Shown: in pieces, positions 54,376-60,608 of the stretch
Layout: every line of letters begins with the position of its first letter
Numbering within the stretch: position 1 is the first letter of the stretch
Source of the DNA: an uncultured Mycoplasmatota bacterium
Lineage (GTDB): Bacteria; Bacillota_I; Bacilli_A; RF39; UBA660
Reading direction: 5' to 3'
Assembly: GCA_900553395.1 (NCBI GenBank)
Contig: USDJ01000002.1
Location: forward strand, 66,525 to 130,524
Length of the DNA stretch: 64,000 nt
Made by a program: the position numbers and the translations under genes
Notes under the pieces: generated by a model
Told to the model about the DNA's origin: nothing
The model's database searches: none
The model's input: the letters and a program-made list of their open reading frames with translations, nothing else

Positions 54376-54950
54376 TTATAATTTGTCCTTGCTTACTTCA
54401 ATAACAGGACGAATGCCTAAGTATTGTACATATAAATACTTCAAGTCAAAAACACTAACACCAAATATAGGATGACAGATTGTGTATAAAAGTCATCTTC
54501 CTGGTAATCATCTGTAATAGTACTAGAATTTTCTTTAGTTTTTTTATATCGGGCAACCAATTACTCTTAGATTTTACTTGAGTTGTAGTAAGATTGCTTT
54601 CTGAAAATCCAATAGAACTCAAGTCGGTAACTATCTTTTTTACATCTATTGAAGTTATACCCATAATGCTTATAACTTTTTCCATAGATAATATTTTTGA
54701 AGTATAGCTTGAATAGTCTATTGTGTAATCTATTCCATCACTACAAATAGAACCACTTGCCACATCGAAGTCTATATTAGCTTGTCTACTCGCTACTGTA
54801 TCATTTATAGCATCTATATAAAATTCTACACTTCTTAATGCTACATTCTTTCTAGAATCATGAATCATATTTGTACTATTGGAAAAGCTATCAAAGCTAT
54901 TATCGCTAGTATAACTAATACTGCAAGAAGTTCTATTAATGTAAATTATC
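54376..54950 (-). pseudogene. Decayed prepilin-type gene (paralog of the 39306..40370 pilin-like gene): in-frame stop replacing the Gly of the G|FTLIELL site, no start codon, and an internal frameshift
   Basis: The minus strand reads NVKNR*FTLIELLAVLVILAIIALIAFSN..RSVEFYIDAI (compare MKNVKNKGFTLIELL in intact paralogs). The track ORF 54455..54868 is the middle fragment. A third frame ends ...YLGIRPVIEVSKDKL*, matching the C-terminus YGVRPVIEVKRNKIS of the 39306 gene. Confidence 0.6.
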
Positions 54951-55012
54951 TATTCTTCACATTATCACCATTTTAAGTATATAAAAAGTTTGACAAAATG
55001 TCAAACTAGCTA

Positions 55013-56008
55013 TTATCTTTTTTCAAAACTCATATTTGGCTTTTTTAATAATTTAAGTTGAAAGCCTAATGTATCTTGACTCTCATGATCTAACTGTGAA
55101 TCACTGCCTTCAAAAAAGTGAATATAGTCTAGTGCTGTATATGGAGTTGTATAACTAAAATCATTTGTTTCTTCATAAAATAAGGCGTTTCTAAATGATA
55201 TAGCAAAACCATCTAAGTAGGCTTTTATATTTTCTTCTGTTGCCTCTATATATCCATCACTTAATATTTTCATAGCTACTTCTTTTCTCTTTTCATCCAT
55301 TAACATAGCCTTACCTGCTGATATTCCAGTGAAATGCATAATTCCCAGTCTATCTAAGCAATTATTAGCTAAGAGAAAAAATTGACGATATGAGCAATCT
55401 ACTATATATTTTTTACCATCTATAACTATTATATTAAAGTAATGAAATCTAAGATCATTTGGAAGATTTAGATTTTTTTTAAAACCTGGACTGATTACTA
55501 AACTTTGTGACTTTACAGAATACTTTGAACTTACTTTATTTACTATATTGCTAGCTTCAAAACATAAATTTCTGAGTGGATGAAGCATTAAAGTATTTAA
55601 CAAAACTTCCAAATCACTTGATTGTGTAATGCTAGATGCTAACTCTATTCTTGAATCACGAACGATACATCGTATTATATCTTCACCATCATCTTGTCTG
55701 CTTAAAACATCTAAAGATATTTTGGGATTTGATTCTACTAAAAATATCTTGCTATGATTAATATTTTCAAAACGTGATAATGAACATATTTTACTTTTAA
55801 CATCTGAATAATAATGTACACTAACTCTTGCGTTGCAGAAGTCATTTAATTGAGCATTTAAAGTTTTTATTCTTCTATAAATTAAATTTAAATTTTCACC
55901 AAGAGCAATAATATCATCTGGGTCTGAAGTAGAACCACTTAATTCTTTAAATTCGTCTATATATTTATCTATTTGTTTTAAGCATCTTTTAAATATCACA
56001 AAATTCAC
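55013..56008 (-). CDS. Hypothetical protein, tandem paralog B (conserved C-terminal approximately 155 aa shared with paralog A)
   Basis: Shares the block HYFNI.VI.GKKYIVDCSYRQFFLLA.NCLDRLGIMHFTGISAGKAMLMDEKRKEVAMKILSDGYIEATEENIKAYLDGFAISFRNALFYEETNDFSYTTPYTALDYIHFFEGSDSQLDHES with 56070..57020; the N-terminal halves are divergent. Confidence 0.5.
   Translation of the reverse strand: MNFVIFKRCLKQIDKYIDEFKELSGSTSDPDDIIALGENLNLIYRRIKTLNAQLNDFCNARVSVHYYSDVKSKICSLSRFENINHSKIFLVESNPKISLDVLSRQDDGEDIIRCIVRDSRIELASSITQSSDLEVLLNTLMLHPLRNLCFEASNIVNKVSSKYSVKSQSLVISPGFKKNLNLPNDLRFHYFNIIVIDGKKYIVDCSYRQFFLLANNCLDRLGIMHFTGISAGKAMLMDEKRKEVAMKILSDGYIEATEENIKAYLDGFAISFRNALFYEETNDFSYTTPYTALDYIHFFEGSDSQLDHESQDTLGFQLKLLKKPNMSFEKR
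55021..55480. repeat. Direct repeat copy 1 (3' coding portion of paralog B); perfect 262-bp core at 55081..55342
   Basis: Base-for-base identical to 56138..56399, with near-identical flanks. Confidence 0.8.
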
Positions 56009-56069
56009 CTGATAAGTATTGTACTATTTTTTTTAATAATGTCAAATTAGCAATTTTTTAAAATAAGAT

Positions 56070-57020
56070 TTATCTTTTTTCAAAACTCATATTTGGATTT
56101 TTTAATGGTTTAAGTTGAAGACCAAGTGTCTTTTTACTCTCATGATCTAACTGTGAATCACTGCCTTCAAAAAAGTGAATATAGTCTAGTGCTGTATATG
56201 GAGTTGTATAACTAAAATCATTTGTTTCTTCATAAAATAAGGCGTTTCTAAATGATATAGCAAAACCATCTAAGTAGGCTTTTATATTTTCTTCTGTTGC
56301 CTCTATATATCCATCACTTAATATTTTCATAGCTACTTCTTTTCTCTTTTCATCCATTAACATAGCCTTACCTGCTGATATTCCAGTGAAATGCATAATC
56401 CCTAGTCTATCTAAACAATTACTAGCTAAAAGAAAAAATTGGCGATATGAGCAATCTACTATATATTTTTTACCATTTATAACTACTATATTAAAGTAAT
56501 GAAAATTTAATTCACTTGGTATATCCGAATCTTTTTTAAACCCAGGATAAATTATTACACTTTTTGATTTAGCACCCATTAAAAGGCTAACTTCATCTAC
56601 TATATCACTAGCTTTAGAACAACAATCTACTAAAGAACTTTTTACTGTAAATTCATTTAAGGAAATGGATAAATCAGATATAAGTCTTAATCTAGAATAT
56701 TTTATGATACGTTTTATTATTTCACTATTCTCATTTGAAAATACTAAATCATAAGTAAGATTTGGAAACGAATCTATTAAAAATTTGTCTGGGTAAAGAA
56801 AATCTGATAGTTCAAATATTCTTTCGCCTACAGCATCATAATAAAATTTTCTCGTTTTGCCTTTAGAAGTATAATAATATTCTTGTTGATAAGCTTTAAT
56901 TCTTTTATAAAAGTCATTTATTCTTCTTTCAAGTATATCCTCTTCTAAGCAAAAATCTTCTCTTTCAAAATCCATCATACATTTGTCTATTTTTCTCAAA
57001 TATTTTTGTTCTATCATCAC
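56070..57020 (-). CDS. Hypothetical protein, tandem paralog A
   Basis: See paralog B; same length class and same strand, with a 61-nt spacer. Confidence 0.5.
   Translation of the reverse strand: MMIEQKYLRKIDKCMMDFEREDFCLEEDILERRINDFYKRIKAYQQEYYYTSKGKTRKFYYDAVGERIFELSDFLYPDKFLIDSFPNLTYDLVFSNENSEIIKRIIKYSRLRLISDLSISLNEFTVKSSLVDCCSKASDIVDEVSLLMGAKSKSVIIYPGFKKDSDIPSELNFHYFNIVVINGKKYIVDCSYRQFFLLASNCLDRLGIMHFTGISAGKAMLMDEKRKEVAMKILSDGYIEATEENIKAYLDGFAISFRNALFYEETNDFSYTTPYTALDYIHFFEGSDSQLDHESKKTLGLQLKPLKNPNMSFEKR
56078..56537. repeat. Direct repeat copy 2 (3' coding portion of paralog A); perfect 262-bp core at 56138..56399
   Basis: Offset is exactly 1057 bp from copy 1. Confidence 0.8.
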
Positions 57021-57073
57021 AAGAAATCACCTGGTAAGGTATTATACTTGTTTTACATTATTAAATCAAGTTA

Positions 57074-59220: not shown

Positions 59221-60225
59221 CTAATTCTTCTCTTTTTTCTTATTTAAATATTCTTCGTAATTAAATCGATCTAATAAATCAGCTTTACTTATCTTAAATC
59301 TCTTCTTAAACACACTTTCATTAAGAAATAATAGAAATGCATTTTCTTCGTTTATTTCTATTCCAATATTATTCAAATAATAATATCTAGCAAAAGAAAG
59401 CTCAACACTTTGAATAAGATATTTTGGAACTTTTACTATGACATTTAATATTCCAAATTCTCTATATAAATTTAATTTATCATTAGTATTTTCTATAGTT
59501 GAACCTAGTATTACCGGAAACTCTAACACAATACGCCTAGCATCTTCCACCTTGAAGCCGAATGTCAATAGATTATTAAATCTATCATTAATTTTAGACA
59601 TTAATAAAGATAGTAGTTGTGGATAAATGGAACACATTTCTATTACTTCTTCATTTGTAAATCCTAACAAACAAATATCTTTTATTCTTTTTTTAACTTT
59701 ATTTTGGGATAGGTTTATGATTGATGGTAATTTTTTTATGATTTTTAATGCCTGATTTTTACTGAACCCTAAAGATACTATGTCATCTATTCTCTTTGAA
59801 ATATAACTAATATCAGAACCTAATATTTGAGGAAATTTCTTAATAATTTTTAAAACCTCATTATAAGTTAATTTTAACGTCATCATATCTTTAATCTTAT
59901 TTAAAGACGTAGCATATGGATGTTTTAAGATGTGTGGATTAGCAAGTATCATCTTTTTTATTTCACTTTCAGTAAATCCTAATTCTCTATAATCACCAAT
60001 TCTACTTAACAAAGTAATAATTGAATACGAAAAAAGTCCTGGTACTACTCTAGTTATTTTTATAATTTGTTTTTGTGTATATCCTAATGAACTAAAAAAA
60101 TTATAATTAGTTTCTAATTTAGATTTTAGAGTATCATTATCATAACTGAGTAGTGCATAATCATTTACAATTTTTACCGCTATATCTTCGCTATAGCCTA
60201 AGCTCATTAAATAATTAACTGCCAT
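59221..60225 (-). CDS. mTERF-like repeat protein (about 8 repeats of the L..LGFS...I.KI....P.LL motif)
   Basis: Periodic approximately 32-36 aa units: YLMSLGYSEDIAVKIVNDYALL, FFSSLGYTQKQIIKITRVVPGLF, LGFTESEIKKMILANPHIL, LGFSKNQALKIIKKLPSII, LGFTNEEVIEMCSIYPQLL, FGFKVEDARRIVLEFPVIL. Confidence 0.5.
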   Translation of the reverse strand: MAVNYLMSLGYSEDIAVKIVNDYALLSYDNDTLKSKLETNYNFFSSLGYTQKQIIKITRVVPGLFSYSIITLLSRIGDYRELGFTESEIKKMILANPHILKHPYATSLNKIKDMMTLKLTYNEVLKIIKKFPQILGSDISYISKRIDDIVSLGFSKNQALKIIKKLPSIINLSQNKVKKRIKDICLLGFTNEEVIEMCSIYPQLLSLLMSKINDRFNNLLTFGFKVEDARRIVLEFPVILGSTIENTNDKLNLYREFGILNVIVKVPKYLIQSVELSFARYYYLNNIGIEINEENAFLLFLNESVFKKRFKISKADLLDRFNYEEYLNKKKEKN

Positions 60226-60608
60226 TAATCTATTACTCCCATGCTTATTAAACCTATAATATCATCAATTTCCATTCCGTTTTTTCGTTTTTCTAAAATA
60301 AATTCATCTATATCATCAGCATCTTCATTAAGTAAAAGAGGATTACTATCAAAAGTAATGTCTAATCTTTTTATTCCAAGTAATTTAAGCTTTTGTATAA
60401 GTTCTAAAACACTATCAAATATTCTATTTAAATAAATAGGATTAGTAGTTATAATATTTCTAATAATTTTATCACTACATCCTACACTTCTTAAAAGATC
60501 TATTAAATTAATTACTTCACTATTTGATAAGTATTCTAGTTCTGGATTTTCTTCTAGCATTTCTTTAATTTCTTCTGTTGATATATTAACATTTAAAAGT
60601 TCTAACAT
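60225..60608 (-). CDS. Small mTERF-like repeat protein (3 repeats), translationally coupled to the downstream larger one (TAATG overlap)
   Basis: LLRSVGCSDKIIRNIITTNPIYL and LLGIKRLDITFDSNPLLL units; the stop TAA overlaps the ATG of 59221..60225. Confidence 0.45.
   Translation of the reverse strand: MLELLNVNISTEEIKEMLEENPELEYLSNSEVINLIDLLRSVGCSDKIIRNIITTNPIYLNRIFDSVLELIQKLKLLGIKRLDITFDSNPLLLNEDADDIDEFILEKRKNGMEIDDIIGLISMGVID

Follow-up and report, generated by a model that had tools for sequence, protein, structure and literature searches.

Bacterial tandem paralogues that undergo concerted evolution are characterised by direct repeats about 1 kb apart, by a tract of sequence identity that is bounded by diverged sequence, by homogenised synonymous sites, and by an extent of the tract that varies from strain to strain. 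Among the papain-like enzymes, the Tox-PLDMTX family (PF15645; with the C3 deamidase domain of Pasteurella multocida toxin, PMT, and Salmonella SseI) and the arylamine N-acetyltransferase (NAT) family (PF00797; with Escherichia coli NhoA and human NAT2) have been placed in the transglutaminase-like branch (PMC10318531). Tox-PLDMTX proteins share a conserved set of C, W, H, D, and Q residues (Zhang et al., 2012; PMC3482391), and the family is listed as proteobacterial and linked to the type II secretion system (Zhang et al.; PMC3482391). These described systems are compared here with two adjacent genes, termed A and B, on contig USDJ01000002.1 of an uncultured Mycoplasmatota bacterium, of which a stretch of 64,000 nucleotides (the window) was analysed. 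It is quite likely that the two genes are lineage-specific tandem duplicates coding for cytoplasmic enzymes of approximately 37 kDa, that these enzymes represent an undescribed family of the papain/transglutaminase-like type, and that the 3' approximately 450 bp of both genes are kept alike by gene conversion.

Gene A, the downstream paralogue, is located on the minus strand at positions 55013-56008 (331 amino acids from a GTG at 56008 in the list of open reading frames, ORFs), and gene B, the upstream paralogue, on the same strand at 56070-57020 (316 amino acids from a GTG at 57020). Residue numbers of A refer to the 331-amino-acid version. The original prediction, made from the sequence of the window, had described tandem paralogous genes with divergent N-terminal halves and an identical tract of 262 bp, and these observations could be confirmed. 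Among all family members, the N-terminal part of each of the two minus-strand ORFs has its best non-orthologous match in that of the other (E ~5e-10), which points to a local duplication as the origin of A and B. The 262 bp are exact, and the full run of identity extends over 264 bp (minus strand; 55079-55342 in A, amino acids 223-310, and 56136-56399 in B, amino acids 207-294; offset 1057 bp) with near-identical flanks. The run is part of a longer homogenised 3' segment on the minus strand, which in A spans 54994-55457, starting at about amino acid 185, immediately ahead of the His189 codon, and ending 19 bp after the stop codon, and has its counterpart in B at 56051-56514; the two units share approximately 95% identity overall (repeat family D1). 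Within the 445 nt from 55013 to 55457, A and B differ at 23 sites, every one of them outside the 264-bp run. When 23 differences were distributed at random over 445 nt in 200,000 trials, a run of at least 264 never arose. The tract is much longer than the divergence of the surrounding homologous sequence predicts. Upstream of position ~55460, the ungapped nucleotide identity of A and B is at the background level of 25-35%. On the protein level, A and B share 29% identity in the N-terminal part (38/129), 46% in the middle part (17/37), and 93% in the C-terminal part (137/148), where the 264-bp run encodes the C-terminal helical subdomain (amino acids 223-310 of A).

AlphaFold2 models of both proteins (A, pLDDT 84 and pTM 0.87; B, pLDDT 91.3 and pTM 0.90) show the same order of secondary structure elements, with three long N-terminal helices, further helices of which the last starts at a conserved Cys, strands carrying a His and an Asp, and a helical C-terminal subdomain. 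The latter is very conserved and rich in invariant aromatic residues (motif YLDGF...RN...Y...Y...F). Each protein may accordingly be described as having three parts, namely fast-evolving N-terminal helices, a putative catalytic core made up of the Cys helix and the His/Asp strands, and the conserved C-terminal subdomain. The candidate nucleophile is Cys149 of A (codon at 55562-55564, minus strand), equivalent to Cys133 of B (56619-56621, minus strand). It resides in the divergent part of the genes, outside the converted segment. The other candidate residues, all encoded on the minus strand, are His189 (55442-55444; His173 of B, 56499-56501), Asp204 (55397-55399; Asp188 of B, 56454-56456), and Gln209 (55382-55384; Gln193 of B, 56439-56441). 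In the corresponding columns of the family alignment (n = 266), Cys is present in 234 and Ser in 27 sequences (261 in total with either residue), His in 264, Asp in 264, and Gln, located five positions after Asp, in 262. A uniform exchange of Cys for Ser, with His and Asp retained, would be expected at the position of a nucleophile. In model A, C149 starts the helix 149-162, H189 is the first residue of the strand 189-196, and D204 directly follows the strand 199-203; model B is equivalent. The layout typical of papain- and transglutaminase-like enzymes, in which a helix starts with the Cys and the strands after it bear His and Asp, is thus found in the models and in the conservation pattern. 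The original prediction had noted spaced Cys, His, and Asp residues in the shared domain. This applies to His and Asp, which are conserved catalytic candidates encoded in the near-identical 5' flank of the run, outside the run itself, but not to the Cys, as the shared domain begins only downstream of the family-conserved one (C149 in A, C133 in B); the Cys of the motif IVDCSY is not a family-wide feature. In the proposed mechanism, Cys149 or Cys133, or the Ser of one subfamily, would be activated by the His-Asp pair and attack an amide or thioester carbonyl, and the acyl-enzyme formed would be resolved by water or an amine. Such a scheme would cover deamidase, transglutaminase, N-acyltransferase, and peptidase reactions.

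Searches of Pfam, NCBIfam, and the PDB sequences with both proteins retrieved nothing significant, and a search of the PDB sequences with a family profile returned only coiled-coil and helical-bundle noise. A match to PBECR4 (E 0.0036) was confined to the N-terminal helices of A and, as no other members showed it, was discarded. The earlier statement that the proteins have no obvious family assignment therefore is correct insofar as no curated Pfam or NCBIfam model matches them, and they do not turn out to be ordinary members of a known enzyme family. It does not extend to the superfamily level, where a remote but consistent affinity to the papain/transglutaminase-like enzymes became apparent. 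In a Pfam scan of 94 members (alignment A2), only two families were matched repeatedly, Tox-PLDMTX by 15 members (best E 3.1e-5) and Acetyltransf_2 by 11 (best E 5.9e-4). The Foldseek lists obtained with both models contained NATs, a transglutaminase, PMT-C3, SseI, transglutaminase-like proteases, vasohibin, a C39 peptidase, and UCHs, and the papain/transglutaminase superfamily accounted for most of the top 50 matches of model B.

The proteins share with Tox-PLDMTX the predicted papain-like alpha+beta core and the Cys-His-Asp arrangement with a Gln after the Asp, and the candidate counterparts of the C, H, D, and Q of that family are near-invariant (C149, H189, D204, and Q209). Tox-PLDMTX was the top Pfam affinity in the 15 of 94 members, the family consensus aligns to positions 5-73 of its profile, which represent the Cys-to-Asp stretch, and structures of PMT (2ec5, 2ebh, 2ebf) and SseI (4g2b) are among the Foldseek matches. 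However, the gathering threshold of 26.1 bits was reached neither by the consensus (11.7-13.7 bits) nor by the tested members (14.3-16.9 bits), the proteins of the window gave no match to the model at E values up to 1, and no conserved Trp was identified between Cys and His in alignments A1 and A2. Unlike Tox-PLDMTX, the proteins are stand-alone products of approximately 300-340 amino acids, in which N-terminal helices and a long conserved C-terminal subdomain accompany the domain, and they occur in low-GC Bacilli without toxin or secretion context. NATs resemble A and B in the Cys-His-Asp triad, in their affiliation to the transglutaminase-like branch, in a helical N-terminal part that bears the Cys, and in being cytoplasmic, as is proposed for A and B. 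They were the top papain-like Foldseek matches of model A (probability up to 0.92) and made up most of the top 50 of model B, and a viral NAT was the top match in BFVD. The triad spacing of 40/15 is close to the 38/15 of E. coli NhoA (C69/H107/D122), and hhalign comparisons with NhoA and with a NAT profile, which was shallow and built from relatives of at least 70% identity, placed the triad in register (Cys149 with Cys69) at P values of ~0.03-0.04, which are not significant. Here too, the family consensus (15.7-16.4 bits) does not reach the Pfam gathering threshold (22.8 bits), and the proteins differ from NATs by the lack of the RGGYC motif and of NAT domain III, by a different conserved C-terminal subdomain, and by the Ser nucleophile of one subfamily. 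Based on the models, the near-invariant Cys/Ser-His-Asp-Gln set, and the recurrent sub-threshold matches, it can be proposed with reasonable confidence that A and B belong to an undescribed family within the papain/transglutaminase-like superfamily, which is positioned outside both Pfam families and has the PMT/SseI deamidases and the NATs as nearest relatives.

Homologues are rare. In a word-indexed database of 5.8 billion proteins they numbered 16 and then 42, and a search of 1.84 billion representatives retrieved 647 clusters (50% identity) at E <=1e-3, of which 213 had E <=1e-30; the members of these clusters have nearly all a length of 290-345 amino acids. A further 110 relatives were found in species-representative genomes, nearly all of which are gut metagenome-assembled genomes (MAGs). 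The hosts are labelled as uncultured Bacilli, Tenericutes, Erysipelotrichaceae, Coprobacillus sp. CAG:605, Acholeplasma sp. CAG:878, and Candidatus Coprovivens, with a few records labelled Muribaculaceae, and the family was found almost only in MAGs of uncultured low-GC gut Bacilli. Several genomes possess two or three dispersed copies with 33-42% identity to each other. As the closest relatives of most of these copies are found in other genomes, they represent old paralogous lineages. A subfamily of 263 amino acids (P0018-P0042; L038:2660-3448) carries Ser in place of the nucleophile Cys while keeping His, Asp, and Gln; it is truncated by ~60 residues at the C-terminus relative to the long form, has motifs of its own (LEPLF, LSQLEN, and GYNFxNRYYxHP), and can share a genome with a long-form copy (L038). 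That a family of approximately 650 clusters is not represented by any Pfam or NCBIfam model is a more useful result than the gene conversion, and the residues C149, H189, D204, and Q209 provide a testable catalytic hypothesis for organisms that are known only from MAGs.

For the comparison between strains, the window was analysed together with a contig of 98% identity (L081) and a further contig (L082), both of which share its arrangement of U32 peptidase gene, B, and A; two fragments were added for copy number and breakpoints. The gene copies are designated by w (window), l (L081), or m (L082) followed by A or B. According to the NG86 method, A and B show a synonymous divergence (dS) of ~0.72 in their N-terminal parts, where the non-synonymous divergence (dN) is ~0.70 and both are saturated, and of 0.96-1.47 in the middle part, but of only 0.11 in the C-terminal part of the window pair and 0.24-0.25 in that of the L081 and L082 pairs. 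Within the tract, wA and wB have synonymous differences at 0 of 50 sites, compared to 47/96 in the N-terminal and middle parts (Fisher p=1.6e-11) and 8/32 in the rest of the C-terminal part (Fisher p=3e-4). Compared to the orthologue of another species, the synonymous differences in the tract amount to 24/51 (p=3.4e-9), and orthologues of related species have a tract dS of 0.48-0.89. The L081 pair differs in the tract by 11 synonymous (of ~51 sites) and two non-synonymous changes, which is significantly more than in the window (11/51 vs 0/50; Fisher p=5e-4), but contrasts with 49/98 synonymous differences upstream. Because the synonymous counts are significantly low, purifying selection on the protein cannot explain the identity. 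A site table revealed that differences between A and B are fixed in all strains up to position ~55445, with few between 55343 and 55445, that no fixed difference exists in any strain from 55079 to 55342, and that such differences reappear from 55078 to the stop codon. In the tract, wA equals wB, from which lB differs at three and mB at four sites; lA has eight private synonymous variants, and mA is a mosaic. The orthologous copies wA and lA differ at 11 sites in alignment columns 223-310 (ten synonymous and one non-synonymous; NG86), one of which is located just outside the run. Upstream of the tract, all fixed A/B sites unite wA with lA and mA, so that the paralogue from the same genome is closer than the orthologue from the sister strain in the tract only.

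The homogenised synonymous sites and this phylogenetic discordance agree with the gene conversion that had been proposed for the pair, and support the interpretation of the tract as the product of repeated conversion, or concerted evolution, between A and B. Non-reciprocal homologous recombination between the direct repeats, which are 1057 bp apart, would keep the 3' ~450 bp of both genes alike. The simplest reading of the strain data is a recent B-to-A conversion in the lineage of the window, in which the latest event would have copied the B-type tract (56136-56399, the probable donor) into A (55079-55342, the apparent recipient) and so produced the 264 identical bases. Conversion would end where homology fails, at the 5' side near the His codon and at the 3' side where fixed A/B differences cluster within the final ~20 codons. 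With this 5' limit, A and B would each retain their own N-terminal region and Cys helix, whereas conversion would make His, Asp, and the C-terminal subdomain common to both. Except that the process is restricted to the 3' third to half of the gene, there is nothing unusual in comparison to the known concerted evolution of tandem paralogues; the conversion is an ordinary phenomenon, and the locus offers a clean small case of partial concerted evolution without conceptual change.

A variable N-terminal half joined to a uniform C-terminal half could also mean, as had been suggested initially, that the N-terminal halves are specificity modules under diversifying selection, with the catalytic and C-terminal half deliberately kept uniform. 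Throughout the family, evolution is indeed much faster in the N-terminal than in the C-terminal half, with dN/dS ratios (omega) between strains of 0.25-0.83 (4-25 substitutions) compared to 0.02-0.11, the A/B pair is about three times more divergent between strains than the flanking genes, and the Cys helix and next strand differ between A and B (17/37 residues identical). In addition, the N-terminal dN relative to the single A-like gene of a more distant relative (L083) is twice as high for B (0.74) as for A (0.37), and a patch of 63 codons at the 5' end of B contains 18 non-synonymous but only four synonymous changes between L081 and the window. However, dS is raised in this patch too (0.157, compared to 0.015 in the rest of that gene half), and therefore an imported divergent allele fits at least as well as selection. 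Consistent with such an import, 19 of the 138 differences that separate the window and L081 over 7.1 kb are concentrated in 200 bp at 56863-57062, which comprise the 5' end of B and its leader. A strong strain divergence over the whole N-terminal half of B, which was suggested by an alignment of four sequences with MAFFT, proved to be a gap artefact, as the pairwise alignments confine it to the first ~63 codons. The omega of ~1 between A and B is uninformative because synonymous sites are saturated. With no omega clearly above 1 in any comparison and small substitution counts, the dN/dS analysis did not bear out diversifying selection, and specificity modules maintained in this way appear rather unlikely. 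Still more speculative, and to be regarded as a long shot, is a scenario in which A and B belong to a non-toxin branch of the PMT-C3/SseI/NAT-like enzymes with housekeeping or regulatory protein-modifying functions (deamidase, transglutaminase, or acyltransferase) in gut Bacilli with reduced genomes, and in which the N-terminal helices and the nucleophile helix set the specificity. As conversion is confined to the C-terminal half, this module would have been free to diverge after duplication. If true, the arrangement would be a built-in means of generating new specificities while the catalytic scaffold stays constant.

Effectors commonly form expanded sets of paralogues that contain a variable region, and A and B might be toxins or effectors, i.e., Gln deamidases of the PMT-C3/SseI (Tox-PLDMTX) type that are delivered to a host or competitor and use the variable N-terminus for delivery or targeting. 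The best Pfam affinity is to Tox-PLDMTX, whose C, H, D, and Q are present, PMT and SseI appear among the structural matches, and the bacteria are gut-associated, but all Tox-PLDMTX scores remain below the Pfam threshold, and several further observations argue against this possibility. No signal peptide or known secretion domain was recognised in A and B by inspection. In the loci of the best 80 of the 110 relatives in species-representative genomes, BLAST clustering and a Pfam census of the directly adjacent (+/-1) genes revealed no conserved neighbour, be it immunity-like or part of a secretion system, and no family was present in more than seven of the 80 loci. Instead, the genes sit amid varied housekeeping genes, for example those for RF-1, TilS, pseudouridine synthase, topoisomerase, and rubrerythrin. 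PADLOC and PHROG models gave no consistent matches to the 94 members. The polarity also is opposite to that of polymorphic toxins, in which a conserved N-terminus precedes a variable C-terminal toxin; in A and B the N-terminus varies and the C-terminus is conserved. A role as delivered toxin is therefore improbable, and because of the housekeeping context, the lack of a signal peptide, and the reversed polarity, a cytoplasmic enzyme is favoured over a toxin cassette. The best guess for the substrate is an intracellular protein or peptide amide, or a compound of the acyl-CoA type.

Several points weigh against the interpretation of A and B as converted duplicates that code for cytoplasmic enzymes of a new papain/transglutaminase-like family. 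The triad was read from the residue order and secondary structure of predicted models; no match to the superfamily is individually significant (Foldseek E >=0.01, hhalign P ~0.03-0.04, Pfam scores below the gathering thresholds); the lack of a signal peptide was judged by eye; the genomic context points to no activity; and the direction of conversion was deduced from three strains only. Furthermore, the window is identical over 6948 bp to a human-gut metagenome scaffold (scaffold_36 of ENA ERZ28619677), which therefore provides no independent support for its alleles, and repeats of such similarity may be collapsed by assemblers. During bubble popping or consensus polishing, repeat paths that are nearly identical could have been merged, which would have made or exaggerated the perfect identity, all the more as the 98%-identical L081 has 13 A/B differences in the same tract. 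In contrast, both copies were assembled with unique flanks and are colinear with two independent assemblies, in which the assemblers did resolve A/B differences in the tract, and the mosaic A copy of L082 is consistent with real conversion events. The low dS of only ~0.25 in L081 and L082, compared to ~1 upstream, means that concerted evolution holds regardless of any assembler effect. An assembly artefact, which had been named as a possible pitfall from the outset, is an unlikely source of the perfect identity in the window, but may have contributed its last few identities. Although no part of the family proteins is more conserved than the C-terminal half (~80-88% protein identity to the nearest other species, represented by P0002 and P0004, and ~50-55% to more distant members), it is extremely improbable that purifying selection alone or a very recent whole-gene duplication without recombination caused its likeness in A and B, as protein-level selection leaves synonymous differences (orthologue tract dS of 0.5-0.9 compared to 0 to 0.25 between A and B), a recent duplication of the whole gene is incompatible with a dS of ~0.7-1.4 in the 5' two-thirds, and neither accounts for a paralogue that is closer than the orthologue in the tract.

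The pair of genes proposed here to undergo gene conversion was found in the window, L081, L082, and L084, the last being a fragment with a B-like gene followed by an A-like start. In the related but more distant L083, a single A-like gene directly follows the U32 gene and is succeeded by the same hairpin as A. Copy number, for which a check had been recommended, therefore is variable between related species. The twofold higher N-terminal divergence of B from the L083 gene may mean that B accelerated once the genes had duplicated, or that they duplicated earlier and the lineage of L083 has lost B. A search for more strains in JGI metagenomes yielded no matches to an exact 35-mer, and a protein scan retrieved one distant locus only. 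A second tandem pair was observed in another MAG (L024, 6883-7761 and 7767-8648). Only its last ~287 nt can be aligned on the DNA level, with ~80% identity and a longest identical run of 32 nt, which may be a trace of older homogenisation or merely reflect the high conservation of this region. Three family matches have about twice the normal length (P0017, 586 amino acids; P0069, 535; P0184, 587), with two matched stretches each in P0069 and P0184. Fusion of tandem copies or read-through in the gene calls may explain their length, which hints at tandem arrangements elsewhere.

The window has a G + C content of 26.7%, and the pair is flanked by a U32 peptidase gene on one side and by an SDR gene and ligA on the other. 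AGGTGA ribosome-binding sites overlap the first GTG of both A and B, so that the later starts are likelier: GTG 55999 for A (328 amino acids) and ATG 57017 for B (315 amino acids). The same starts were used in gene calls on related contigs, the 315-amino-acid call for B being repeated on L081, L082, and L088, and P0001, an orthologue of A with 96% identity, begins with MIFKR. As judged by consensus matches only, the three intergenic gaps hold the three best promoter-like sites of the minus strand. These are TTGATT-17-TATAAT upstream of B (57041-57069), TTGACA-16-TACAAT upstream of A in the B-A spacer (56018-56045; 11/12 consensus positions), and TTGACA-17-TATACT for the remnant of a downstream gene. 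The last site overlaps a terminator-like hairpin on the minus strand 3' of A (AGTTTGACA-TTT-TGTCAAACT followed by a T-run; 54987-55007). Due to the promoter-like sites in the gaps and the terminator-like hairpin after A, both genes are probably transcribed from their own promoters.

Downstream of A, positions 54424-54990 of the window contain ~440 bp in place of ~2 kb in L081 (7139-9582). The L081 stretch that is absent from the window comprises two genes for prepilin-type (N_methyl) proteins of 418 and 154 amino acids as well as a pair of small ORFs. At ~54890-54985, the window retains a remnant 'FTLIELLAVLVILAIIALIAFP' motif that follows a stop codon, and a 137-amino-acid ORF (54455-54868) consists of fused pieces that match two separate segments of L081. 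It looks as if a pseudopilin or competence gene cluster had decayed here in a strain-specific manner. Elsewhere in the window, a 334-amino-acid ORF on the minus strand (59221-60225) has a strong Pfam match to mTERF (PF02536, E 7.6e-40), and an adjoining minus-strand ORF of 127 amino acids (60225-60608) has a weak one (1.1e-4). The mTERF proteins are mainly a eukaryotic organellar family, and bacterial members in a gut bacterium with a reduced genome may deserve a look.

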